Source: Antedon mediterranea
Taxonomy: Eukaryota > Animalia > Echinodermata
Reading direction: 5' to 3'
Assembly: GCF_964355755.1 (NCBI RefSeq)
Contig: NC_092670.1
Coordinates: 24,228,795 to 24,292,794 of the forward strand
Length of the DNA: 64,000 nucleotides
The notes under the pieces are model-generated. The model made no database searches, had not been told where the DNA came from, and worked only from the letters and a program-made list of their open reading frames with translations. Shown one piece after another: positions 1 through 64,000 of the stretch. Position numbers and translations under genes: made by a program. The first letter of the stretch is position 1. Every line of letters begins with the position of its first letter.

Positions 1-64
1 GATAGATTTTCCATCATGGTTTTTAACAAAAATGTCAAATGTATCGGAGGTACGTGTTGCATAA
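1..64 (-). pseudogene. 5' part of the ubiquitin-like terminal exon of cGLR copy 1 (runs off the window edge)
   Basis: Acceptor ttttcctttag at 65-66, then (x)YATRTSDTFDIFVKNHDGKSI; near-identical to 6321-6384. Confidence 0.8.
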
Positions 65-1417
65 CTAAAGGAAAAAATATATATAATGTAGAAATATTAA
101 TTATGTAAATATAATAATATAATTCGCAAAGAATAACAAAATGATAATCTCAAGTTTTTATGTAATTTGTCAGCGTTTACTTAGCAAAATAATAAGTTTG
201 ACACCGCAAATCTCTCCGGAAACCAACCCGATAATTTATAAAGCGCTATCTGCAGTGCATTAAAGACCTCAAGCTAAAAATGGAATGTTTGATAGTCTAA
301 ACCAGTAAACTGTGAACAGATAAACAAAATGATTATCATCGCACCAAACTTCGCGATACTGGATTATTAAACTATATTTCGAATAGGAAAAACAATCAAA
401 TTAGCATATAATACAGGTACTATATATGCAAGCAATCCAACATTGTGCAATAAGCATCCAATGATGTTTCCATGGTATTTGGGGGAAAATAAATTCCACT
501 TATTACTGGCTTACATTTTATTCAGTAGGAAACTGATAATTCATCATCACGCATAGCTCTTTTAAGCCATCCCAGAATGTTGTCCAGTGAGGCAGGCTTA
601 TACCGATCAAGAAGATTCACTGATTCGCAGAAGAAGTTGGGCACGTTGCGTTTTTCAAGGAAAAGCATCAGAGTCTGAACCAAATCTTTGAATCTATCTG
701 CTAAACTGTCTTGGTGCCACGATAGGTCAGGACCGTCCTTGTTTAAATGCAGCATACAGTCTTAAGGTGATATGACGACAGCATTCCTAGTTGTGAAGAT
801 CCTGCCTTCTTCTGAACTGTCTTCAGAATTTTCAGGGTATCACTACGGCATTCATTTATTTTGTCAATGCTGTTGAATATACTTTTTTCTCTATCCGAGA
901 AACTCTCCCTCCATAATTGATCGTATTCAGAAGTATTTAAATGACGAGGACCTTTAGCCACAAAGTGCCTACCATCAATAGTTAAGCTTGGAACTATATC
1001 AATAGACATTACTTCCACCGTTGGATATTAAATACATGGCTGGACCACCAGATTCCTTAGGGGTTATCGTCATGCCTAGGTCATTCTCATCGCCATGAAC
1101 TATTTTGTCTACGGTTGACTGCATGTTCTGACGAACTGTATCAGGGTTCAATCGCCCGGCTTTTATAAAATCAGCCAATGTAGATTCAATCGAATGTGAC
1201 GTTTTCTCAATCAAATAGTAGCCATCTAATCTTCCTTCTGTGATTCTCCAATTATTAGTAGACAGTTTCAAAGGAACCAGTAAATCAAATTCGTCTGCCT
1301 TAATCACCTTCAAACCTTCGTATGTACTTCCTTGATGAAAGATCTGCTTAAAGTTAAATGATGAAGAGTGATGGGAGATCTCGAACTTTTTTATATTTTT
1401 TCAACGGCTTCTTTTGC

Positions 1418-3056
1418 GAGGCGAGTCATATGGCCAAGCGGTTAAGGCAGGGGCGCCGTTTACCGTACCTAAAGAGCCAACAACAACATCGGCAAGGGTT
1501 CGAGGCCGACTCGCTCCTAGTTCTGGTGGTGGAACAAGTCTTCTCGGATAAGGACTATAAACCGTAGGTCCAGTGTACACAGTTATAAGTTACCAGTGGC
1601 GTATCCGGACCAGGATTTTGAAGTTGGGGGGGGGGGGGGGCCGGGAATTGCCAATTTGCCGACAAAATTGGTGTCATTATCTGTACATACACGACGTCTC
1701 TGATCAATATATGTTCTAGGATTACATAGTCATATTGCCTTATATGGGATGACGATGCAAAATTAAAACCAAACCAACATTATCTGTTAGTATGTTGTAT
1801 TTACAATAAAGAAAGAATTAGGAAAATCTGATTGGTAGTTTTCGAAATATAGGGTCTAAAACATCGCCGAAAATGATCGTTTTTAGCCACGAAAGAAGTA
1901 AAACAATTTGCGGCCTCAGTCGACAATTCTATTAACTACGCCATTTTTGGTTAAAATAATTACATATAATTACGTTTTTTAGTAATTTATTTTATATATC
2001 ACCATTGGAAATATCAATAAAACATGTTATTAAATGCTTATAAAATATATAAAGTTGTTTACTTAACGGAATTCGGACAAATTCATTGCTCTAACTTTGT
2101 GTAGTAACGATCAGAGAGATTCATGGTACACGCGCGAGAGAAAACATTCCGCTGCGGGCGATTCGCATCCACCAATCAAATCAGCTAGAATCCTAAATCA
2201 TTCAACCGTGAGCAATGCCAATCGCGAGAAAGCTCAGCTTTGATTGGCTTACGATGACATCACATCACAAAATGGTGGTTTTGTAGTTGAGCCTCACGGA
2301 ATATTCTGTTCCAAAAATGAAATACATGGATATTTTTTATGGTATATGTGCTTTTTCTTTAAAAATTTTGAATAATAAAGGCCTCATATCGAGAAAAAAA
2401 ACCGGGTTTTTGGCACTTATAATAAATATATCTTAGACAAAAAAGCACATGGCATGTGGAACTATATAGCCTAATCTCTTAGCGTAGGAAGACATACAAA
2501 TTAAATCCCAGGTCATGAGAGGCTCAACTGCATGCAAAAACAAGGTTTTAGGGTAAGGTCAAAGACTTTTGAGTAAACAATCTACCGCGTACGGCCGTAC
2601 GTACGTGCTACACATTTTTTACGTGTTTCGTTAGATGTAATGAAAATAAAAAATAGTTGATCTGAAGGGATCAATGATGATATGTAAATAAACAAACACT
2701 CAAAAGAATTATGTTTACAGTTCAATTATTGTCAGAATAAATAGTTTATTTTTTTCCCCGGCACCTTTGTTTGCCGACGGCCGCGATGATGTGCCGACGG
2801 AAACGAAATCAGGGGGGCCCGGGCCCCCCCGGCCCCCCTACTGGATACGCCACTGGTTATAACCTGTGTGTACTTTAAAGAACCCAGTTCATTATTCGAA
2901 AAAGAGTAGGGGGTTACCCCGGTGAACTGGTTCACACAATAGCCCCTGTATCAGGGGGATTACCACCTATCTGATAGGACAGTGATTAATTCACTATTGG
3001 TAATCCTTGGCCACATTGCCTAAAGACATAAAATAAAATAAAATAAAATAAATAAA
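1418..3056 (+). mobile_element. tRNA-derived SINE inserted in the cGLR copy 1 coding exon
   Basis: A-box TGGCCAAGCGG, B-box GGTTCGAGGCC, core GGATAAGGACTATAAACCGTAGGTCC shared with 25241-25561, (AAAAT)n tail, TSD TTTTGC at 1412-1417 and 3057-3062; empty site in copy 2. Confidence 0.85.
1594..2855. mobile_element. Non-autonomous TIR DNA transposon (hAT-like) nested inside the SINE
   Basis: TIRs CAGTGGCGTATCC ... GGATACGCCACTG with G/C-rich subterminal runs; GTTATAA near both flanks (imperfect TSD); the SINE body resumes after 2855. Confidence 0.7.
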
Positions 3057-4146
3057 TTTTGCTTGTCTCTGTTCATGTTGAGGGATGTTGACCTCATCTA
3101 GAAGGTAACTCCTTAGAGCTCCTATCAAATTTGCTGCACACATACTGCACTCTAAAAATTGTAAAAGATGGTTATATGAATAGATACAACGATAGCATTT
3201 AATGATTTTATTTCTAAGAAATGCAATGTATATAATTAGTTATACTATACAAATTTAACCTATATTATTTATTTAACTGTTCGATCCAGAAGGTTCTGCG
3301 TATACGGGCAAAATGCCTCCTTAATTATATACTAGAAACATCAATTTCAATAATGAAATCATACATTTTGTTTAAAAACTCTTTATAATATCTTCCTAAG
3401 ATAGAAATATGGAACTATATCGTAATAGTGAAAACTAATGTTATCAAATTTACATTTCACGGTACATCTGAGATAGATCAGGTAGGTATCTAAGGCAGAG
3501 ATTTGTACCAAAGTTTTTTCATTGTGCTCGCCTATGTCAGAATTAACCATAATTTATATATAGATACATACCCTATAGGCCTACCGTAATTAAATCATAT
3601 ATTATATTTGGAAATATCCTATTTTTAACTTTCTTCGTGGTATCGGATTATTCATCAAATGATTAAAAGGTACATATATTTACACAGCATCCAAACTCAA
3701 CAAAAAAATGTGGTTTTTTTTTTTTGCCTCTCCTACCATTTTGTCTGTGTGCATGCGTCCGTGCGTGGTAGATTTATTTTATGAATGAATGTCTATTTGG
3801 AATTGGAACCATTCTGAAGGAAATCGAGAACGTGCGTATAGTACGATGCACATCGATTAATTTAAAAAAAAAGACAAAACAAAAATGGTATTATTAATAT
3901 AATTTGTCGTGTTTAACATAATGACTGGTAATTTGGAATAATAAATTTTGTAATATGATACGATCATACTGTTGTCCTTAAGTTATTTTTAGACTTAAAC
4001 TATTGTTGTATGTATGATATTATATGGCCTACAGTCTGCTGTGAGAGAAAATGCACCGATTGTTAATTAAATATCATATCTACTCTACGCAGCCATATAA
4101 CCGTCTTAATGAAAATTAATTAAAATAAATGACGAAAATTGACTAA

Positions 4147-4410: not shown

Positions 4411-6122
4411 CTTTTCAAAACGTTGACATGCTGAGATAAAACAATGAATACGAAAATATAACTATTTAATAATTAGTACCAATTACATACGCTTAGTTTT
4501 ATATTTGTCATCTATGTAATGCATTTTCTTCTTTTTTTTTTGATATAACAAAATTAAGAAAACAAGTTAAGAGAGTCTGAGCCGAGAATTATATTGTTAG
4601 GCAGGTTGTCCACTTGTCAAATTTAATAGGTCTTCCTCCAATTAAAGACCACTTTTGCGACCCATGTTTTAGTGGTCTTTAATAGCTTTGGTCTCTAATT
4701 AGAATCCCTTCAACTAAAGACAGTCACTTAGTTTTAAAATTACCTAGAGGATGTTTTTCGAAGAGTTTGGTATAAATGTAAACCAGCTTGTTGGTTTGTC
4801 TGCTGTACATTTGTGTATTTCAAAAACTGAATTAGTTTTTATGTTATTTTTTTGGCCTAGCGTACATAAGAGCCAAAGACTGAACCGTAATTCTGAATTC
4901 AAAGTACCATTAAATGTTTATTAAAATGCAAACAAACGAATTAAACAATTTAAAGAAATCAAATATGTACTTAAACTACTAATAAAAATACTATTGCAAG
5001 CTGCCATCACCTTGTATTAATTAATGTTATCAGTAATTGTAGGAATGATTTTAGAGTCTCATTACCGAAGTTTTACAAAAGGTTAGGTCTACGTAGATTG
5101 TTTCTTAATATTAATAAATACAAATAAAAATTAACACAACACAAATCAAGATTTAACAATAAAAGACACATTTTTACATATTTTTTTAACACTTCTTTTG
5201 CAAACGTGTCACAAAATTACCATTATCATGTATGTCATTAATTTAGCAAATAAGTTTCATAACCTTATTATTTAATAATTAGTTATAATTAGTTTATAAC
5301 CTTTGTCCAGTACAAGTTTTTAATTCTGAGAAAAACAAATATTTTAAATATTGAATCTGAGGTCTGTTGCAGAGATATATAACTATAATAAATAATATAT
5401 ATAATATAACAAATTGAATATGTTTATAGTGGAAAACAAGAAAACGAGAGCCACTGAAAACAAGTTTATGCTTACATAATGAATCAAAATTACAGTATCA
5501 TTCGGAAACATCTTAGTTAAAAACAATAAAAAGTTTAAAACATTTTATTTACATACATTTATTTGCACACACCCTATGTTTTGTCTAAAGTCATATTTGA
5601 GGTTAATTTTAAATTAAATGTATTAATGTACGAATTATGAATGTAAAACAATTGTACGTCCATCACTTAAAATAACGGAAGCCAATGGCAGTAAACAGTT
5701 AACAACAGGCTACAATACATAATGATGAAGTACAACATAATTATTATAAAAGTTTAAAACAACCTTTATAAATTAAATTATTTTTCTTAATCAATATCTC
5801 ATCCTAATCATTACCGGAATAACTGTAATCGAAAAACTCCACTCTCAATTACTAATAATTAGTGTGTGTGTTACTAATAAAAAAGTGTGGTTTGCCCAAA
5901 TATGGTAGTAATAATGACGTCATCATGTTCATTTATGGGCACATCACATTTTTTGTCACATAAAGTTTGATAGTGTAGACAGAGCTTGATATATAAAATA
6001 TTTCACCGAACATTATCGCTATCGTTTGTCCTTTTCGTGATGTTATTTCCGTGTTGGAAATAACTTTTATTTTATAGGCTGTATGTAGGCCTGTAACCTT
6101 TTAGGATTGATTTCGATCTGTA

Positions 6123-6384
6123 TTATCGACCTCCTCTTAATCTTGGTAGGAGATAAATTGTACTCTGGTCTTTAATGCTGTAATAGCCCAATGTGTTGCC
6201 ATCTTCTAGTTGTCTACTCTCAAATGTTAGTCTCTGTTGATCCACTGGAACACGCTCCCTTCCTGCGATTTCATGTTTCAGTTGTTTTACTGTGGTTGAT
6301 CTGCGCATGTTTTGATAAACGATAGATTTTCCATCAAGGTTTTTGACAAAAATGTCAAAGGTATCAGAGGTACGTGTTGCATAA
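6123..6384 (-). CDS. Ubiquitin-like domain exon ending PRLRGG-R*
   Basis: FDIFVKNLDGKSIVYQNMRRSTTVKQLKHEIAGRERVPVDQQRLTFESRQLEDGNTLGYYSIKDQSTIYLLPRLRGGR aligns to ubiquitin over its full length; the first strand lies upstream of the ORF-track Met and starts at a splice acceptor. Confidence 0.9.
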
Positions 6385-7775
6385 CTAAAGGAAAAATATA
6401 TATAATGTAGAAATATTAATTATGTAAATATAATAATACAATTCGCAAAGAATAACAAAATGATAATCTCAAGTTTCATGTCATTTGTCAGAGTTTTACT
6501 TAGCAAAATAAGAGATGTGTGACATCGGAAATCTCTCCGATGAATTACAAAGCGCTATCTGCAGTGCATTAAAGACCTCAAGCTAAAAATGGAACTTTTG
6601 ATAGTCAAAAACAGTAAACTGTGAACATCATTGCGCCAAACTTCGCGATACTGACCCTTAAACTATATTTCGAATAGGCAAAACAATAAAATGACACTAT
6701 ATGCAAGCAATCCAATATTTTGCAATAAGCATCCAATAATGTTTCCATAGTATTCGGAGAAAAATAAATTCCACTTATTACTGGTTTACCTTTTATTCAG
6801 TAGTACTCTGATAATATGCTCATCATCACGTGTAGCTCTTCTAAGCCATCCCAGAATGTTGTTCAGTGAGTCTGCATCATAGCGATCAAGCAGATTCACT
6901 GATCCACGGAAGAAGTTTGGCATGTTGCGAGTTTCAAGAAAGTGCATCAGAGTCTGAACCAAGTCTTTGAATCTATCTGCTAAACTTTCTTGGTGCCACG
7001 ATAGGTCAGGACGGTCGCTATTTAAATGTAGCATACACGTTTTAAGGTGATACGACGACAACATTCCGAGTTGTGACAACCCTGCCTTCTTCTGAACTGT
7101 CTTCAGAATTTTCAGGGTATCTCTACGGCATTCATTTATTCGGTCGATGTTGTTGAATATACTTTTTTCTCTATCCGAGAAACTCTCCCTCCATAATTGA
7201 TCGTATTCAGGAGTATGTAAATGACGAGGACTTTTAGCCACAAAGTGCCTACCACCAATGTTTAGGCTTGGAACTATATCAATAGACATACTTCTTCCGT
7301 TGTATCCAACATCCAACGTTATGGCTGGACCAGAATAACTAAGGTTTATCCTCATACCTAGGTCACCAATTCCATTAACAACTGTCTGCACAGTTGACTG
7401 CATGCTCCTTCGAACTCTATCAGGGTTCAATCGTCCGTCTTCTATAAGGTTACCCAATGTCGAGTCAGTGTAATGTGACGTTTTCTCAATCAAATAGTAG
7501 CCATCTAATCCTCCTCCTGTGATTCTCCAATTAGTAGATAGGTTCAAAGGAACCAGTAAATCAAACTCATCTGCCGCTATTACCTTCAAACCTTCATATG
7601 AACTTCCTTGATGAAAGATCTGCCTGAAGTTAAATGGTGAAGAGTGGTGGGATCTCACAAACACGTTTTTTATTTTTTGAATGGCATCTTTTGCTTGTGT
7701 CTGTTCATGTTGAGGGATGTTAACTTCATTTAGAAGGTAACTCCTTAGAGCTCCTATCAAATTTGCTGCACACAT
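6123..7775 (-). CDS. cGLR copy 2: cGAS-like nucleotidyltransferase predicted fused to a C-terminal ubiquitin-like domain; coding exons 7775-6790 and 6384-6123 (415 aa spliced; 329 aa if the intron is retained)
   Basis: Catalytic motif QGSSYEGLKVIAADEFD plus SIDIVP; Mab-21 motifs WRESFS and LSSYHLKT; acceptor at 7784-7785 just before the ATG; donor AG|GTAAAC at 6789 and acceptor tttag|T at 6385 are both phase 2 and join in frame (NK-S-YATRTS). Confidence 0.85.
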
Positions 7776-8131
7776 ACTGCACTCTAAAAATTGTAAAAGA
7801 TGGTTATGTGAATAGATACAACGATAGCATTTTAATGATTTAATTTCTAAGAAATGCATTTTATTTTAATGTTTATCATTAATTAATGATACTATACAAA
7901 TTAAACCTATATTATGTATTTAACTGTTCTGCGTGTACGGGCAAGTATAGGCCTCCTTAACCATATACAAGAAAAATAAATTTCAATAATACATACCGTA
8001 CCGTAATTGAATCTTATATTATATTTTGAAATATCCTATTTCTAACTGTCTTCGTGGTATAAAAGCTTACTCATTATCTATCAACTGATTAAAAATGGTA
8101 CATATTTACACAGCATCTAAAATCAGATAGT

Positions 8132-8170: not shown

Positions 8171-8723
8171 CACATAAGCATTTACATAAATGCAACAGCA
8201 AACCTTGTACATGATGATGATTTTTTTTTATTTTTGTTTTTTTTTTACCTTCCCCGCCATTCGTTGCAAGAAGGATTTGGCCTATTTATTGAATCAAAGC
8301 TTTGGTCACGTGCGTGGTAAATTGTTATGAATGAATGTCTTAATTGGAACCTTTCTGAAGGAAATCGGACGTGCGTATAGAGGATGCACATCATCTTTCA
8401 AAATCAAATTGAAAAAATACTAAATGACGGTATTATGAATAATAATTTGTGACTGTTAATTTGGAATAATAAAGTTTGTAATATGATGCGATCATACTGT
8501 TGTCGGTCGGTAAACACTAATTTAAATTTGAGCACGCGACTACAGCCATGTATATGGCCTTGACTTAAAATAGTATTGTTAGGCTGTATGATATTATTAT
8601 GCCTACTGTCTGCAGTAAGGGAAAATGCACCGATTGTTAATTCAATCGTATGATATCTACTCTTCGAAGCCATATAACCAACTTAATGAAAGTTGAATAA
8701 CATAAATGATGACAATTGACTAA

Positions 8724-8995
8724 CCTTAGTTTGTTTGTAAAGCAGTATTTTGACGAGACCTTCCGTTTCCGGCTGGTTTTGATCACGAAAATTTGTGACA
8801 AACTATGTTTTAAATTATTATTAACAAATAGGAAGTCCCGTTACTTCATCGCCATCAGTTGAACATTATAGCATATGCTAACATTTTATACACTATAGTG
8901 ATATTGGAAATTCCCACTCGTAGTTCTAGAACATTCTATGCATGAAAGTAATGACGTCATATTAAGGCGTGAGCCATATTTTTATGATTGGCTAT
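8724..8995 (-). promoter_or_regulatory. Putative promoter and non-coding exon 1 of cGLR copy 2
   Basis: CCAAT ~8987, CRE 8952-8959, NF-kB GGGAATTTCC 8906-8915, TATAAAA 8884-8890, GGGACTTCC 8831-8839, donor AAG|GTTAGT at 8724. Confidence 0.7.
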
Positions 8996-10685: not shown

Positions 10686-11823
10686 TTATTCAACTTGGTC
10701 CTGAATACTTTGTGGTTTTCTGTCAAAAAAAAAAGACAAAATGTTTTATTTCAGTTAAAATATCTAAAAATTCTGTTGATTATAAACGTTAGACTGTTGC
10801 CGTAGATTCTTACTTTTTGTGAAGTAACACACTGATTATCTGCTCGTCATCGCGTCTAGCATTTTCCAGCCACTTCACAATATGATCCAGGGATTCTTTG
10901 TTGTACTTAATATTATTAATAATTAGATTCATTGACCTGCAGTGAAAGTGTGGTATGTTGGAGTCCCTAAGAAAATCTATCAATGTCTGAACTAAATCCT
11001 TGAACCTATCTGCCAATTTGTCTGGCTCCCACGATAATTCAGAACGATTGGCTAAATGAAGCATGCATGTTTTCAGGTGATAAGACGACAGTAGTTTTAG
11101 TTGGGATTCTCCTCTTTTTTCCCGAATTGTCTTTAGAATTTTTAGACAATCTCGACGGCATTCATTCATTTTGTCCATAGCTTTTATTCTTTTTTTTTCT
11201 TTCTTGGAAAAGCTCTCCCTCCATAGTTGACCGTATTCCTTGTGATCACGAAGATGCCGGGGACTTTTAGCAACAAAATGTCTGCCGTTTAGTATTAAGC
11301 CTGGAACAATATCAATAGACAACTTTTTGTCGTTGAACTTTAGTGTGATAGCTGGGCCAGAACTTCTCAGGTTTATTGTCATTCCTGTCATACCATTGAC
11401 AGCTTTCTGCACAGTCGACTGCATGCATTTACGCACTTTTTCCGGTATCAATCTCTCTTGCTCTATTAGGTCATCAAAGGTCTTGTCATTTTCATTTGAA
11501 TTCTGTGACTTCTCTGACTTTTCAATCCAAAAGTAGTTACCTAGGTCTTTTTCTTTTGGTTCTTTGATTTTCCAATCGCTAGATTTTAGGTTAAGAGGAA
11601 TCAAAAGGTCAAATTCATCAGCTGCTATGACCTTTAGACCTTCGTATGAACTTCCTTGATGGTAGATCTGCTTGAAGTTGAATGGCGAGGAGTGTTGGAA
11701 TTTATGAAAAGCTTCTCGAATCTTTTGAACGGCTTCTTTGGCCTGTGTTTGTTCAAGTTTAGTAAAAGTGACTTCAGTTTTAAGATAATTCCTTAGCTCC
11801 AGCAACAGGTTTGATTCAGACAT
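10686..11823 (-). CDS. cGLR copy 3; main exon 11823-10814 plus a probable short last exon 10719-10686 (adds KPQSIQDQVE*)
   Basis: QGSSYEGLKVIAADEFD, SIDIVP and LSSYHLKT intact; acceptor tttcag|ACAATG places the start at 11823; donor AA|GTAAGA at 10813; acceptor (t)n-gacag at 10720. Confidence 0.85.
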
Positions 11824-21461: not shown

Positions 21462-24400
21462 TCAAAATGTTGTCATCTTAATTTCTTGCTGAAAGTTTGT
21501 TTTGCGGGAATTGCAAGTACACATATGTACGATAGTGTACAGATATGGATTAATGCACGAGTTGATAGGAATTATGAATGTTGCCGCCCAGACATATATT
21601 TCCTCTGGAATTTCCCACATTTCCGTCTCTGAACAAATCCATATCAGTATGACAGGGAACCAACAGCAGAAATCGGTGAAAACTATTATACCTAATTTCC
21701 AAGCCCTTCTTGTTAGATCCTTTCGTCTTTTTATTTTGTTGACAGTAGCTCCTGATCTCTTAACAGAGAAGAAAATTGCGACATAACTCGTTGCGATCAC
21801 GATAAAACCTAAGCCATTGAATCCAATAAAAATGGCAATAGCATACTCCCAGCCTGGCCACCGACTTCTTGTTAGTGGCAGTGCAAGGCAAACGCTCTGT
21901 TTCCCATAGTATTTTTCTCCAAAATACGATAAATTAATAAAGTCTAATCTGTTTACAAGTGGAAGAAAACTGAGAACAACCCAAACTAACCAACTAATAC
22001 CAATAATAATTTTACATTTTGTACTGTTTAGCCGTTTTGTAGTGAAAGGGTTCACGATGTTAACTGCACGGTCGATGCTCAATATCATCAATGTAGTTAC
22101 AGAACATTGGCCGGAGAGAGTAGAAATAGCACCGGCAAAGCTACAAAAAAAACTGCTTTTCCAATATCTTGCAACTTTTGCATACCGTCCTCTATAATGT
22201 ATATCTGCACTCGCTATTATGATCAGATAAACTGCCATCAGCAAGTCAGACACAGCCAGATTAGTAATGAGCATGGTTTGCACCTTATTAAAATCATTTT
22301 CATTTTTGTCCTTGTAATTAAACCTTCTTGATAAAATAACAATTCCATTACCAATGACAGATGAAACACCAATAACTAATATCAATACTCTTAACACTTC
22401 TCGTTTTAGTAAGTCTGCACAGGAAGCAAACGCATCTGTTGGTTCGCAGACATCAATGTCACCCACAAGACAACATAGACTAAACAAATCTGAATATCTA
22501 AGAGAATTAACGAAAACAAAACATAGTTGTAAAGTAATGTTATTTTGTACATCTTACCTGCCTCATATATGGGTATTAAAATCCTTTCAATACTTACAGT
22601 TCTTGTAAGTTCTTCAGTTCTTCAAAGGTTTTATCTCTGTAATTCTGTAAGTTGTTGTCCTTTAAGTTTCTACAAAATAATAATTGTATAAATAACCTAT
22701 TAAAGCACAATGGTATGTTAAAGTGAGTCGACGAGAGATTGTGAAATGAATATATTTAGTTATTGTTGGTTGGTAAGATATGCTTTTGCCTGTTTAGTCA
22801 CTGGTCCCGAATAGACGAAATTATTGTCTCTTACGATTACAAAGTCAATACATTTATCTCATTTTACTGTATTTATATAAAAGAACGGTTCCACCAAAAA
22901 AATGTATCAATATCCGTTTTGTATCCGTATTTGTATTTCAGTTAAGTTTTAAATGAGTTAAATAGTTATTTAATCTATTCCTTTTATTAATCATTTTGAT
23001 AGTTATGATTTTGCATTATATTTCCTGGAAGAACACAATTATATTGTGAATGCGTTTCCGTTATAAAATAAAAATACTAATAATAATAATAAAGGTTTAA
23101 CAATTAATTGAATATTTAGACCCATGTTTACAAAACAACTTAATGTTTAAATAAATTATATGATTGTTATGCAAACTAGTTCTGCCTTTTAGTCCATGGG
23201 CCAGGTCCAGTTTTTTGCGAAAGCAGTATCAAATTGGTGGCAAATGCTACCATACATTTTTGGAAAGCTTAATATGTCTACTTTTCAGAAATCCATGATA
23301 GCAATGCCAATTGTACAGCTTAATAGTAATTTTTTAGGATTATATAACACCGCCTACGGAAAATATGCACCACAAAATTTTGGGGTAGGGGGTAACACTT
23401 TTGCTAATAACTCGGGATTTAATGAACAGATTTGCATTGTCTTGGTATCAATATGTAGTGTATAGACTGTTTAAGTGTAATATATTTTTTTCTAAGTAAA
23501 TCCAACAATTATTGACGCCATTAGAGATCAGAAGGTCATTGAACTTTAGTAAAAAATGATTTTTTGTCTAATATTACCTTATAACTTTCAGTTTTTAACA
23601 AAAAAAATACAATAGATGTTATGCAAACTGATGTTTTCATGAACATATAGACCCAATAAACAAGAAAATTGAAGTTAAAGATTAACAAAATATGAATATG
23701 CTGTGTATTATGAATAAATTTGTTGTTTTTAGTAATTTGTAATCGTTTACAATTATGGGGTAGGGGGTAACATTTTTGCGAATAACTTACAATTTAGTTA
23801 ACAGATTTGCATTTTCTTGCTATCAGTATGTAGTGTATAGATTGCCTAATTGTAATATACTTTTTAAAAATGAATCCCGCATTTGTTGACATCTTTAGAG
23901 GTCAAAAGGTCACTGACCTTTAATAAAAAATGCAATTTCTTCTAAATTAGCTTATAAATTTCAATTTTAAACACAAAAATACAGGAAATCTTATGCAAAC
24001 TAATATTTTCTTAAACCTATAGACACAATAAATAAGAAAATTGAATTTAACATTTTTTCTGAATTGAATATGCTGTGCATTATAAAGAAACTTGTTCCTC
24101 ATTAGTTATCTTTGACAATAATGGGGTAGGGGGTAACGTTTTTGCAAATAACTTAAGATTTAGTGAACAGATTTACATTTTCTTGTTATCAGTATGTAGT
24201 GTATGGATTTCTTTATTGTAATATGCTTTTAAAAAATGAATCGAAAATCTATTGATGTCTTTTAGAGGTCAAAGGTCAATAACCTTAAATCAAAAATGCA
24301 ATTTCTTCTAAATTAGCTTATAAATTTCAATTTTAAACACAAAAATACAAGATATCTTATGCAAACTAATGTTTTCTTAAACCTATAGACACAATAAATA

Positions 24401-37869: not shown

Positions 37870-39774
37870 TACTGTACATTACATTATACATAATCATGGC
37901 ATAATTATTACATTAGCTTAGTAAAAATTATTATAAATCAATAAAAGAAAGTTTATATTTCATCTTCAAAATAGCCAACGATGAAGCTGTCAATGCTGTT
38001 CCATATTTCAAGAGCAACACAGCATTAAGACTAGTACATTTAAATTTTCTTTTCTTTGACTTAAGTCTAGTTTTACCTCTAGTGTTATAATTGTGCTTGT
38101 TCGATTCTTTTCCAAAGATAGACACCAACCTAGTATTTAGATCATGAGTGACAGAGTACATTACAGTACCAATTTGATAAGAAATAAAGTCTTGCATTTT
38201 AAGAAGTCCATGTCTACGGAAGACGGACGATACACTGTCTCTGAACTTTGTGAAGGTGATAACACGTAGTGTTTTCTTTGGAGACGCTTGATTTCATTCA
38301 TACAAATACGATTCGTACGTGCAACCCCATACAACAATGCCATACTTGAATATTGGTTCTATAAGGGATTTATATATCGAAAGTAAGGCTTTAAGTGGTA
38401 GAAAGTGTTTTACTCTATAGTATGCCAATATACTTAGATACTTTTTTTGATACGACGTCAATGTGTTCTTTGAAATTAACATGATCGTCTAAATAAACCC
38501 CACGAAATTTAGTTTTATTTGCTCTTTTGTAAATCTGTAAATAAAACTTTAATTTGATCTATGTCAACTTTTCTTTTTATACTTCGAAATATCATAAAAT
38601 TGGTTTTATTTACATTTAATGACAGTTTGTTACATTACAACCATTCATTAATTTTATCAATTTCGGTAGCGACCAGAGTATTTAATTTTTGTGAGATAAG
38701 AAAATATTAGTATCATCAACAAATAAAATAAGGGATAACAGTTTAGAGCAACTAAAGATATCATTGATGTAAAGTATAAATATGAGGGGTCCAAGTATAG
38801 ACACTTGGGGCACACCATATTCAATATTACGAATTGTAGATTTAACATTATCAAAGACTGTGTATTGGCGTCTTCGGGAGACATAGCTCTTAAACCAATT
38901 TAAAGCTGTACCCCTGATACGGTACTAATCAAGTTTCTTTTTGTAAAATGATGTGATCAATCGTATCGAATGCTTTGCTAATTTCCACAAATATACCGAT
39001 ACCATACTCTCCCTATATCAATGGCATCGAATACCTTATCGATACGTTTGAGAATAGCCATATATGTGGAGCTTTGTTTTTGAAGACCGAATTGAGAAAG
39101 GTGAATAATTTTAGTTTTCTGTACATAGTTATATAGCCTATTGTATACAATACGCTCTAGAATTTTAGATAGGGTGAGATGCACGGAGATAGGTCTGTAG
39201 TTTGAAAATAAATTTTCTCTCTTAATCACCGGCTTTATTTGTTGGAACAACCCTGGCTATCTTTGTCATATCAGGTACAATACCCGTTTCTAGCGAAAGG
39301 TTAAAAATGTAACAACGGAATTGAAAGAGGGTAAATAATATGTTTAATGATCCTGCTATTGTTATCATCCACACCTTCAGTGTTGGAGGTTTGCATGCTT
39401 CTAACAAGTTGTATAATTTCTTCTGGGTTGGTAGAATAAAAAAAAGAAGGAGTTAGTAAAACTACCTTTTAAGAATGTCTGATAGTTTATGTTGCTAGTC
39501 TGGATATTATTAGCCAGGGTTGCCCTAATATTTGTAAAATAATCAATGAAACCATCAGAAGTGAATTTAGCGTCATCGGTGTCAGGGGTAACAGCTTTCT
39601 TCCTATTTCCCCTGCTGAGAACCTCACCAAGAATATTCCAAGTCTGCTTTCACGTTACTTTTAGCCGCACCGAGAGCACTGGAGTAATATTGGCGTTTAC
39701 AAATTCTAATTAAATGAGTGAGTTTGTTTTTGTATTTAGTATATTTTTGTCTATTGTTATCACTTGGATTTTTG

Positions 39775-44495: not shown

Positions 44496-47400
44496 TCAAA
44501 TGTCAACTTTTGTCATCTTAATTTCTTGTTGAAAGTTTGGTTTGCGGGAATTGCAAGTAAACATATGCACGATAGTGTACAGATACGGATTAATGCACGA
44601 GTTGATAGGAATTATGAATGTTGCCGCCCAAACATATATTTCATCTGGAATGTCCCACCTTTCCGTCTCTGAACAAATCCCCATCAGTATGACAGGGAAC
44701 CAGCAACAGAAATCGGTGAAAACTATTAATCCTAGTTTTCTAGCCATTTTAACCTGTTCCTTTCTCCTCAGTCGTCTGTTAACTGTTGCACCTGAACGTT
44801 GAACAGAGAAGAAAATTGCAACATAACTCGTTGCGATCACGATAAAACCTAAACCATTGAATCCAAAAAAAATGACAATAGCATACTCCCAGCCTGGCCA
44901 TCGACTTTTTGTTAGCGGTAGTGCAAGGCAAACACTCTGTTTCCCATAGTAGTTTTCGCCAAAATACGATAAATTAATAAAGTCTAATCTGTTTACAAGT
45001 GGAAGAAAACTGAGAACAATCCAAACTAACCAACTAATACCGATAATAATTTTACACTTTGTACTGTTCAGCCGTTTTGTAGTGAAAGGGTTCACGATGT
45101 TAACTGCACGGTCAATGCTCAATATCATCAATGTAGTTACAGAACATTGACCGGAGAGAGTAGAAATAGCACCCGCAAAGCTACAAAGAAAACTGCTTTT
45201 CCAATATCTTGCAACTTTCGCGTAGCGTTCTCTGTAGTGTATATCTGTACTCGCTATTATGATCAGATATACTGCCATCAGCAAGTCAGACACAGCCAGA
45301 TTAGTAATGAGCATGGTTTGCACCTTATTAACATTACTGTCATTATTCTTGTTAAACCGTCGTGATACGATTACAACTACATTACCAATGACAGATGAAA
45401 CACCAATAACCAACATCAATACTCTTAACACTTCTCGTTTTAGTAAGTCTGCACAAGAAGCAAAGGCATCTGTTGGTTCGCAGACATCAATGTCACCCAC
45501 GAGACAACACAGGCTAAACAAATCTGAATATCTGAGGAAATTAATGATAAATTAATTACTGTAAACTAATACTATGTTGTTTTTGTAACCTGTCTACATA
45601 ATATATTTCTTCTGTAGGCCTAAGCCCGGAAGTGAACAGTTGCATTTTTAACAACCTCTGTATGAAGTGAAATCAGCGTAGAAGATTGCATCGAAAAGTT
45701 TAGCATACATTTGGGACTGCTCAAAGGAAAATACAGTTCTTTAAAATAATATGAATTCGTGTCAAGTTTAAAAAACAATTATTGAATATAATAGGTGCTT
45801 AAACATATTTTTGTATTGTAAATGCATTGTTATTAAGGTCTTATTCAATACTTACAATTCTTGTAAGTTGGTCAGTCCTTCAAATGTTCTATACCTGTAA
45901 TTCTGTAATTTGTTATCCATTAAGTTTCTACGAAAAAATAATCAATGACCAATTAAAAGCAAAAAATAGTAATAGAAAACGCGCAATGGATATGTAAAAT
46001 TAGTGTTTGTTGGTTGGTAAGGTATGTTTACCTAGTAAGACTTACGGTTACAAAGTAAACACATTTATATTTATATACAAGATTAGTTCCGCTATAAAAT
46101 GTACCGTTACTTTTAATTTATTCGTTGTACTTCAGTTAAGTTTTTAATTAGTTTGAATTGATATCTTTTAATCCAATAATGCTAAATAGTTATTGTAATC
46201 TATTCCTTCTTTTGATTTTGATAGTTGTGATTTTACATTATATTTCCTGGAAGATAACAATCATATTTTGAACGCGTTTCCGTTATAAACTAAAAATACT
46301 AATATTAGTAATAACGTATAACAATTAATTAAATATTTAGACCCATGTTTAAAAAAACAACTTAATGTTTAAATAAATTATATGATTGTTAGGTAAACTA
46401 GTTTTGCCTTTGACTAACATACATCTTCTTAGAAGCAAACTTTGATTCATCTTAAATTGTTTATATATTGGAAATGCGTATAATTGGTAAAAAGTAAAAT
46501 GTTCAAAACTTACAAAATTAAAAGAATGAGGCAAAATAGGAAAATGCAGCATAATCTATAGTAGTTATTATTATTATGGTTTCATTTAAACAACTGAATG
46601 ATTTTAAATTAACATTTTATAAAGCCAATAACAATAGTGAAATTAAGATGATTACATTTTAAATATTCATCAAGGTTACATAACAAATACTTTAATTGTA
46701 CTTTAAAGGATGCACAAAACGCTGTTAATACAGGTTTCCATACCATCAAAATGCATTAGGCTTACTTAAATTGTCTTACGTTTGTATTCTTAAACCGGAC
46801 TTTAGTCATAGTTCGAAGTTCGACTTGAAAAAGTCGTAGTTCGAGCTATTACTTCAAATTCGATTAAAAAACGAAGTAGTCGAAGTTTGCAGTTCGACTT
46901 AATGAAGTCGAGCTTTTAGTCGAGGTGCACACGTCTGGGTAACAAAGGCTAAACATTGGCCAATGACAAGAGAGTATTTGAGGAGCAGACGAAATTTTGC
47001 GCATTAATATCACTTTCCATTTTTTTACAACACTTTTTACGCATCAGGACTATATACATGAAAAATAATTTTAATCGTTAATTATTAGAACAATATCAGT
47101 ATTAATTTAACAGTGAAGTATATTTGATTAACAACAAACAAAATCTTCAAAATATATTTAGGAACCATGGCGGTACGGTAACTTTTATATTTTCTAGGCC
47201 CCAACAAAGTATGATCGCGACGTACCACGCACTTCATAGCGTGACAAGAAAGCGCTAGGCCCCCTAAACATTTCATCGCGTGGTGAATTTCCGTATCTGC
47301 CATTGTCGCTATGGCGTCACGTAGTTCAAGTCGGACTTGCGCGAAGAAAATAATGTAATTTGTATACGGTTGTAAATAAAGATGATTTTCATTTTTATAA

Positions 47401-57899: not shown

Positions 57900-59808
57900 A
57901 TTATAGGCCAACATACTGTACATTACATTATACATAATCATGGCATAATTATTACATTAGCTTAGTAAAAATTATTATAAATCAATAAAAGAAAGTTTAT
58001 ATTTCATCTTCAAAATAGCCAACGATGAAGCTGTCAATGCTGTTCCATATTTCAAGAGCAACACAGCATTAAGACTAGTACATTTAAATTTTCTTTTCTT
58101 TGAATTAAGTCTAGTTTTACCTCTATTATTATAATTGTGCTTGTTCGATTCTTTTCCAAAGATAGACACCAACCTAGTATTTAGATCATGAGTGACAGAG
58201 TACATTACAGTACCAATTTGATAAGAAATAAAGTCTTGCATTTTAAGAAGTCCATGTCTACGGAAGACGGACGATACACTGTCTCTGAACTTTGTGAAGG
58301 TGATAAAACGTAGTGTTTTCTTTGGAGACGCTGGAGTTCATACAAATACGTACGTGCAACCCCATACAACAATGCCATACTTGAATATTGGTTCTATAAG
58401 GGATTTATATATCGAAAGTAAGGCTTTAAGTGGTAGAAAGTGTTTTACTCTATAGTATGCCAATATACTTAGATACTTTTTTTGATACGACGTCAATGTG
58501 TTCTTTGAAATTAACATGATCGTCTAAATAAACCCTACGAAATTTAGCTTTATTTGCTCTTTTGTAATTCTGTAAATAAAACTTTAACTTGATCTATGTC
58601 AACTTTTCTTTTTATACTTCGAAATATCATAAAATTGGTTTTATTTTCATTTAATGACAGTTTGTTACATTAAAACCATTCATTAATGTTATCAATTTCG
58701 GTAGCGACCAGAGTATTTAAGTTTTTGTGAGATAAGAAAATATTAGTATCATCAAAAAATAAAATAAGGGATAACAGTTTAGAGCAACTAAAGATATCAT
58801 TGATGTAAAGTATAAATATGAGGGGTCCAAGTATAGACCCTTGGGGCACACCATATTCAATATTACGAATTGTAGATTTAACATTATCAAAGACTGTGTA
58901 TTGGCGTCTTCGGGAGACATAGCTCTTAAACCAATTTAAAGCTGTACCCCTGATACGGTACTAATCAAGTTTCTTTTTGTAAAATGATGTGATCAATCGT
59001 ATCGAATGCTTTGCTAATTTCCACAAATATACCGATACCATACTCTCCCTATATCAATGGCATCGAATACCTTATCGATACGTTTGAGAATAGCCATATA
59101 TGTGGAGCTTTGTTTTTGAAAGACCGAATTGAGAAAGGTGAATAATTTTAGTTTTCTGTAAATAGTTATATAGCCTATTGTATACAATACGCTCTAGAAT
59201 TTTAGATAGGGTGAGATGCACGGAGATAGGTCTGTAGTTTGAAAATAAATTTTCTCTCTTAATCACCGGCTTCATTTGTTGGAACAACCCTGGCTATCTT
59301 TGTCATATCAGGTACAATACCGTTTCTAGCGAAAGGTTAAAAATGTAACAACGGAATTGAAAGAGGGTAAATAATATGTTTAATGATCCTGCTATTTTTA
59401 TCATCCACACCTTCAGTGTTGGAGGTTTGCATGCTTCTAACAAGTTGTATATTTTTTCTGGGCTGGTAGAATAAAAAAAAGAAGGAGTTAGTAAAACTAC
59501 CTTTTAAGAATGTCTGATAGTTTATGTTGCTAGTCTGGATATTATTAGCCAGGGTTGCCCTAATATTTGTAAAATAATCAATGAAACCATCAGAAGTGAA
59601 TTTAGCGTCATCGGTGTCAGGGGTAACAGCTTTCTTCCTTTTTCCCCTGCTGAGAACCTCACCAAGAATATTCCAAGTCTGCTTAATGTTATTTTTAGCC
59701 GCACCGAGAGCACTGGAGTAATATTGGCGTTTACAAATTCTAATTAAATGAGTGAGTTTGTTTTTGTATTTAGTATATTTTTGTCTATTGTTATCACTTG
59801 GATTTTTG

Positions 59809-59810: not shown

Positions 59811-62765
<2,955 letters not shown>

Positions 62766-64000
62766 TATATATATATATATTATGTACCCATTTACATACG
62801 ATTTTACAGGAAAAGGGGTACAAATCTACATTAGAAATCGTTAAAATCTTAATTTTTTTTCACGCTAGTTATAGTACTACACTTTGAAATTTTTGTTAAA
62901 ATGGAAACTCCACTATAATGTATAGGTAGTAGCTACATTTCTGGTATTTATGAGTCCCATGATAATACTGTATTTCGCTGTCAGATAATCATTGAATTAT
63001 TATCAAAACAGTCCATGAAAGTTTTTGTTTGTAATATGATACTTCACACTTAAGGCGTGATGAAGTGACCCCCAGACTTGACCTTAGCAATAAAATAAAA
63101 TAAATTGAGTCTGTTTCATATCAAAGTTATTCACTTCTGTAACAAAATTCACATTATAGAAAGAGAAAAGAAACGTTTAATTATAACTCAAAAACCACAT
63201 TGTCTGACAGATTTTTGCTTTTAATTACATTTTTTAAGGTAAAATAACTATTATATGACAATAAAATGACACATTCAAAAACAAATTTGAAATAAAAAAT
63301 ATTTTTCAGAGGGACAATATATCTTTAAAACTGTTAAGTCAATAAGCGAGCAGCGTTTTTTGTAAGAAATATTTCTTGTTTAAAGTTGAACAGAGTTCAA
63401 CTTCAACGTTACGATCGGTAAAACTGACTGACCAATCAAATAGTTCATAAATTACGTCATCATTGTTTGTGACAATTCTTATTTTTTACAACGCGACGAT
63501 GTTTTTTGTGCTCTTTTAAAGTCTGACATTTCAAAATAACATTTGTAAGTAAAACTAAGTTTTAATATAAAAACAATTTAATTTAATGTTGTCTTTAGTG
63601 TAAAGACTAGATTAAGATATCAGCGAAAACATGTCCTAGGCCGGCTGGGTTGAAGCATCAAAACCCCTAACTTTTTCAATTTTGACACGGGCCCGGCTGC
63701 GCGTGACCGGCCTTGGCTTTTCAAAACTTCACGTCCATGTGTCCCAGCAACGTCGAAAGAACCAAGAAACCAACGATCACGTAAAAATTCGCGACGGAAA
63801 AAAAGGCTTTAGGCGCAAAAAAACAGTTCCGTATATTAAATATGGTCTATAAAAAACCCACTATATTCAAATAATTATATGACAAGAATCTACTGGCCTC
63901 AGATGCTATCTCCGGGCGTGTTGGAAAAAAAAATTCCCGTGGGGCATGCCCCCGGACGCGATTTTTTTTTTCGTACGTAAGTTGGGGACCCCTTCATGAA

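Follow-up and report, generated by a model that had tools for sequence, protein, structure and literature searches.

We analyzed a 64,000-nucleotide stretch of DNA (the window) from the crinoid Antedon mediterranea. A gene on its minus strand encodes a nucleotidyltransferase (NTase) of the cGAS-like receptor (cGLR) or Mab-21 type, followed by a ubiquitin-like domain (Ubl) (Table 1). The open reading frame that begins at the gene's ATG closes with AAT AAA AG|G TAA, and this in-frame TAA overlaps the donor of an intron (AG|GTAAAC at 6790/6789; the acceptor, TTTAG|T, is at 6385/6384). If the intron is removed, then the joined frame has 415 amino acids, has the C-terminus LLPRLRGGR, and is letter-for-letter identical to the RefSeq protein XP_071965973.1 ("cGAS-like receptor 3" of Antedon mediterranea). 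An earlier note, made from the sequence alone, had proposed a phase-2 intron of 405 bp and a single cGLR-Ubl frame of this length. This is borne out by a joint in a sequencing run (described below), by the identity to the RefSeq protein, and by matches to Pfam. The same note claimed that the Ubl has no start of its own; indeed, both of the in-frame ATGs in the intron reach stops before the Ubl, so we rejected a stand-alone Ubl gene.

Table 1. Features of the cGLR-Ubl gene and its tandem relatives (positions in the window).
Feature	Positions	Strand	Details
Spliced gene	6123..7775	minus	Source Antedon mediterranea (crinoid); ATG at 7775
5' non-coding exon	8725..8851	minus	From a 211-nt X1 contig; upstream end is the contig's reach only
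Exon with the whole cGLR/Mab-21 nucleotidyltransferase	6790..7783	minus	Residues 1-328; Pfam PF03281 and PF20266; motifs; X1 contig
Phase-2 GT-AG intron, 405 nt	6385..6789	minus	Sequence, and joint in X1
Exon with 9-residue linker, one ubiquitin-like domain (residues 338-414), and stop	6123..6384	minus	Pfam PF00240; model
R-L-R-G-G tail and Arg codon CGA	6126..6143	minus	Run X1 reads TGA for CGA
Copy 1, broken tandem duplicate	1..3143	minus	Start at 3143; interruption at 1418-3056 (1.6 kb); frame breaks, stops
Paralogous cGLR exon P0007	10814..11823	minus	Same phase-2 donor; RefSeq joins it to a short non-Ubl exon near 10718
Paralogous cGLR exon P0005	16680..17722	minus	Same phase-2 donor; database protein has a short tail without Ubl

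Five sequencing runs cover the stretch. None is recorded as RNA, and we took one of them (X1) to be RNA by guess, because it has the intron's joint and has zero depth in intronic bins that are covered by the DNA-like runs. In one X1 contig (depth 15.2), the joint 6384/6790 "skips 405, CT..AC", which is GT-AG on the strand of the gene. The short side of this joint has 30 letters, which is one below the 31-letter bar for bridging. The joint was tested in two runs and found in one: it is present in X1, as expected if the intron is spliced in the way that the earlier note proposed, and was not found in the DNA-like run X4. The support from RNA is thus one contig from one run of one study. Another X1 contig (6790-7694) stops precisely at the donor, and the DNA-like runs X2, X3, and X5 continue uninterrupted past it (contig 6565-7110). 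At the other end of the gene, a 211-nt X1 contig combines 8725-8851 with 7700-7785 and has a matching loose end, which joins a non-coding exon to an acceptor before the ATG. (The donor AAG|GTTAGT, at 8725/8724, is at the 3' edge of this exon.) A second X1 contig near the donor (6716-6819, depth 6.6) covers 74 nt of the intron, which means that there is also unspliced RNA or a short form that ends at the in-intron stop. A scan of the intron (6385-6789) for the poly(A) hexamers AATAAA and ATTAAA found none. The fusion is a real gene.

The X1 contig differs from the window near the end of the gene. It has TGA instead of CGA (Arg415) at 6126-6128, so its product would end with RLRGG and a stop; four DNA-like runs carry the window's letter. 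C-to-U editing at 6128 is disfavoured, as the same contig has nine other differences, which makes an allele or a paralogue likelier. At all four diagnostic sites in the first 64 nt of its Ubl exon, X1 has the letters of copy 1. The last 30 cGLR letters of the joint contig agree with the window copy (the exon at 6790), and its 3' part tracks the window copy down to 5960, which favours an allele as the cause of the letters that resemble copy 1. We consider an allele to be likelier than long-range splicing from 6790 to the acceptor of copy 1. Separately, very high-copy short repeats lie at about 5900-5990 and 8500-8560; one of them is just downstream of the Ubl's stop and is touched by the X1 contig.

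We then considered the nucleotidyltransferase half. The first coding exon matches Mab-21 (PF03281, E 3e-17) and Mab-21_C (PF20266, E 2e-17), both over the cut-off. The motif of this family is a G-S loop with three acidic metal ligands, and the catalytic motifs are intact (G57-S58, E70, D72, and D166). QGSSY..DEFD and S[IV]D[IV] are present in all seven of the family proteins that we checked. By fold and motif, the protein is a cGLR, and we predict that it is an enzyme. Its pI of 8.9 (for the NTase) is compatible with binding nucleic acids but demonstrates nothing. The nearest relatives with solved structures are MiD51, then Sp-cGLR1 and cGAS. The top match, MiD51 (SMCR7L), has E 3e-26 by sequence and 28% identity in a fold search. 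Where MiD51 has D-H-I-Q, the window protein has D-E-F-D, so the crinoid enzyme retains acids that are absent from MiD51. Unlike MiD51, it lacks an N-terminal anchor and has a Ubl tail. The crinoid cGLRs are nearer to MiD51 than to cGAS yet have the catalytic acids, so they may inform the origin of MiD49/51 from an active enzyme. In another crinoid, Anneissia, 47 cGLRs and 3 STINGs were counted, and close Anneissia homologues of the window protein appear in that list of cGLRs (Li et al. 2023, PMC9980059). As a side observation, some proteins are tandem double cGLRs (P0047, an 871-aa protein from Anneissia, and P0150, with 730 aa).

In each of the window's four cGLR exons, the GT donor sits at the equivalent position (10814, 16680, 6790, and 515 on the minus strand). 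Copy 1 is 84% identical over 1-1417, and its Ubl exon begins at 64 and runs off the edge of the window. Judging from its sequence, copy 1 is a pseudogene. It had been cited as conserving the splice sites. It does have the same GT and AG, but because it is a broken duplicate, these sites add little support. In a tree of NTase domains (described below), the two Ubl-less paralogues (10.8 and 16.7 kb) group with the window gene as its sisters (100/99). Database models link the four tandem cGLR exons to differing last exons, with either a Ubl or a short tail. Similarly, among the RefSeq isoforms from Anneissia, one Ubl exon is common to two different cGLR exons, and one cGLR exon is paired with two different Ubl exons. 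Cassette splicing, with exon swapping among cGLR and last exons, is therefore possible, but as these isoforms are gene models, it is only a lead.

The second coding exon matches ubiquitin (PF00240, E 4e-22). It has a beta-grasp fold, with TM scores of 0.89-0.94 in the Atlas against domains of ubiquitin or OASL. In the predicted model, the beta-grasp elements have pLDDT of 81-91, and the last four residues are below 50. (The AlphaFold model is poor across residues 200-334, with a mean pLDDT of 60, and is silent on how the domains pack.)

We compared eight distinct Ubl domains from crinoids. (P0004 was omitted because it is identical to P0002.) Pairs of these domains are 34-85% identical, and they are 40-50% identical to ubiquitin. 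They align without gaps and have a common one-residue insertion relative to ubiquitin, which suggests that these Ubls have one origin. LRGG is invariant in all eight domains; of the other columns, 18 of 73 are invariant. As a control, we used other Ubl domains from the homologue searches, at 38-52% identity. RGG is kept in 4 of 259 of these domains (4 of 65 proteins), which are not independent, as the proteins are related and are mostly of unknown origin. If only C-terminal control domains are considered, then RGG is kept in 1 of 10, and that one is shark OASL. With the crinoid set counted as four lineages, Fisher's p is about 8e-5, which is rough because the control proteins are related. Because the model shows no structure for the last residues, folding probably does not account for the retention of LRGG. 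Overall, this is good comparative evidence that selection maintains the LRGG end and that the diglycine matters.

Six of the nine fusion proteins with LRGG terminate exactly at GG. The window protein has one more residue, and two others have 12 and 15 more. Removal of the terminal arginine had been proposed as a step before conjugation, but this is not a general step, because those six fusions and the X1 contig already end at GG. The terminal arginine is incidental. A tenth fusion (P0017, from another chromosome of Antedon) has a Ubl without GG and then a hydrophobic tail. This tail is a repeated hydrophobic stretch and is possibly membrane-spanning.

How widespread is the fusion? The homologue searches yielded an expansion in crinoids. 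Of 194 proteins that we fetched, 10 carry both domains, and all 10 are from Antedon or Anneissia japonica. The homologue searches used a word index, which is insensitive, with a range of 180-809 aa, so it does not follow that the fusion is crinoid-only. In a HMMER search of 50% representatives with a full-length profile, poly-Ubl proteins dominated the hits, and the result excludes only non-crinoid fusions above about 278 bits. In the tree, which was made from 28 NTase domains, fusions with LRGG from Antedon and from Anneissia occur together in each of two starred clades (98/96 and 99/99). Among the inner branches, 7 of 25 are open, including deeper ones, and a single origin of the fusion is not settled.

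The earlier note did not say whether such fusions are catalogued; the architecture is already in Table S2 of Li et al. 2023 (PMC9980059). This table has six rows with UBQ or ubiquitin, all from Anneissia japonica and all automatic domain calls; several of these proteins are homologues of the window protein. A term search of the preprint's main text did not find "ubiquitin", and none of the cGLR-UBQ proteins from Anneissia is in the screening table (supplements 1-6 were searched). Nor did we find selection on the tail, or conjugation, addressed in the preprint's text. More broadly, we found no discussion of fusions of cGLR or Mab-21 to ubiquitin-like domains in echinoderms in the literature that our search covered, which did not include most subscription papers. 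The architecture is catalogued but undiscussed, and the analysis of the tail is new here.

Because the LRGG end seems to be under selection, our leading reading is conjugation. By analogy to chicken OASL, a host E1 would activate the Ubl's tail, and the whole predicted enzyme would be ligated to lysines. We give this a probability of roughly 0.55. Chicken OASL (PDB:7SBI) combines an NTase with Ubls, ends with LRLRGG, and forms conjugates, mostly to itself, in DF-1 cells (Shepard et al. 2022, PMC8764230). A caveat is that the terms "mutant" and "activating enzyme" are absent from the main text of that paper, so that study seems to have no control with a mutated GG. Conjugation would be the best explanation for what we observed (the splice, the domains, the catalytic motifs, and the conservation of the tail), and support for its four steps falls from the first to the last. 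First, Gly414 would be exposed, either directly in the forms with a stop codon or after a deubiquitinase cuts off the extension. Second, a host E1 would adenylate the exposed diglycine. Third, the tail would be ligated to the enzyme itself and to other proteins, as for chicken OASL. Fourth, ligation might cluster the enzyme, localise it, or turn it over, and thereby tune the output of cyclic nucleotides to STING.

Which E1 could act? The contacts that have been named for UBA1 are the Ile44 patch and R42, R72, and R74 (PMC12355090). The hydrophobic Ile44 patch of ubiquitin (L8, I44, H68, and V70) is degenerate in the window protein (P0001), which has L8, T44, Y68, and L70, and also P71; it keeps R42, R72, and R74. 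Across the eight crinoid Ubls, I44 is always replaced (by T, Q, or V), as is L71 (by P or G), and L8 is kept in just one. R42 is kept in four, R72 in seven (one domain has G72), and R74 in all eight. Given that none of the eight has I44 and that only half retain R42, ordinary use of UBA1 is doubtful. ISG15 has LRLRGG yet requires UBA7, and FAT10, with its polar patch, is a substrate of UBA6 (PMC12355090). LRLRGG by itself is insufficient for a substrate of UBA1. Given the polar patch, UBA6 is at least as likely as UBA1 to be the E1. UBA6 has been reported in sea urchins, and UBA7 as a vertebrate duplicate (PMC10341865, PMC11354881).

Among known systems, the earlier note drew a parallel to conjugation of the CD-NTase by Cap2 in type II CBASS, but avian OASL is nearer and has already been reported to conjugate to itself. 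Like the window protein, avian OASL is an immune nucleotidyltransferase with a C-terminal Ubl and an LRGG end. However, OASL is an OAS enzyme with two Ubls, while the window protein is a Mab-21/cGLR protein with one. The window protein is not a member of the OASL family, as it does not match the OAS family (OAS1_C) and has a single Ubl. OASL clusters are its top feature matches in the Atlas (score 0.86), which is only a lead. The Ubl from Antedon and the last Ubl of a shark OASL share 52% identity and both have RLRGG, and Thr44 and the LTFES motif of the crinoid Ubl resemble the OASL lobe. Nevertheless, an origin of the crinoid Ubl from OASL is unsupported, because just one of the eight crinoid Ubls is closer to the OASL lobe than to ubiquitin. 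As the other Ubls in the family are no closer to the OASL lobe than to ubiquitin, convergence with OASL is likelier than common descent. The shark OASL (P0041, from Heptranchias perlo) ends with RLRGG and 11 more residues, so OASL carries the conjugation motif outside birds too.

In type II CBASS, Cap2 ligates the bacterial cGAS via its C-terminal glycine, and the output of cGAMP rises (Jenson et al. 2023, PMC10097602). There, a dedicated E1-E2 protein that is encoded in the operon acts on the enzyme's own tail, whereas in crinoids a beta-grasp domain would borrow the host's machinery. To our knowledge, conjugation of the CD-NTase in type II CBASS works without a Ubl domain. Type II CBASS has linked genes for Cap2 (an E1-E2 protein) and Cap3. 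The locus in the window is from an animal and contains introns, and neither an E1 or E2 nor a frame like Cap2 or Cap3 is evident in the window's list of open reading frames (six were scanned against Pfam, as unspliced frames only). ISG15 and FAT10 are also immune-type Ubls with polar patches that replace Ile44, but they are stand-alone di-Ubls without an enzymatic payload, and ISG15 requires UBA7 from vertebrates.

The strongest alternative, which is possible but falls well short of even odds, is that the free LRGG is a non-covalent signal and is never ligated. The tail could mimic unanchored ubiquitin for readers of diglycine, or it could be bait for deubiquitinases of the host or of viruses. 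ZnF-UBP domains read the free GG, and a free diglycine end could be selected for non-covalent readers. This would account both for the conserved tail and for the lost Ile44 patch, but most readers of ubiquitin rely on that patch as well. Cleavage sites are present in the extended forms (P0037, P0039, and the reference allele), but the forms that end at GG have nothing to cleave. Finally, non-covalent roles have been described for avian OASL Ubls as well, but OASL, with the same layout, does form conjugates.

It is unlikely that the Ubl is a folded accessory domain (for stability, ligand binding, or contact with the proteasome) whose LRGG is a remnant of a ubiquitin-derived exon. Such a role would fit with the sister paralogues that have no Ubl, with the Ubl of P0017, which has a hydrophobic tail instead of GG, and with mammalian OASL, which is missing the motif. 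But a leftover should decay, as in the equally diverged control domains, rather than persist in all eight of the crinoid Ubls that we compared, across two clades and two genera. It is barely credible that the fusion is an artefact of annotation or assembly, with a main product that ends at the in-intron stop. The TAA at the donor, the X1 contig that enters the intron, and the copy-1 letters in X1's Ubl exon speak for it, but against it are the exact GT-AG joint in X1 that is absent from X4, the nine LRGG fusion proteins in the databases from two genera, and the intron without a poly(A) hexamer.

To return to conjugation, covalent attachment has so far been described for a cGAS-family enzyme in bacteria and for an OAS-family enzyme in birds. 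If the crinoid cGLR is ligated, it would be a third, and probably independent, ligated immune nucleotidyltransferase, and it would be in an invertebrate deuterostome that is thought to lack UBA7. Two questions become testable: are animal cGLRs regulated by conjugation, and on which E1 do immune Ubls depend outside of vertebrates? Natural controls are available, namely the sister paralogues without a Ubl, the versions with a stop codon or with arginine, and the extended forms. A more ambitious proposal, which we consider rather doubtful, is that crinoids independently evolved a modifier like ISG15 or OASL that carries a second-messenger synthase as its payload. Through the tail of its Ubl, the cGLR would be ligated to proteins of the host or of viruses, which would prime the synthesis of cyclic nucleotides as in type II CBASS, and phase-matched one-exon cassettes would swap last exons with and without a Ubl as an on/off switch.

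The window contains other features, whose open frames are all on the minus strand. Broken open reading frames at 61175-62859 resemble what we take to be a retroelement with reverse transcriptase and endonuclease; the single frame from this region that was scanned had no match in Pfam. A long TA-rich repeat (about 59.3-61.1 kb) adjoins them. Near-identical open frames of 120 codons, at 37931-38293 and 57975-58337, are probably copies of a fragment of a mobile element. Two near-identical exons at 21462-22553 and 44496-45551 encode 7-transmembrane receptors, and the first of these matches 7tm_1 in Pfam.
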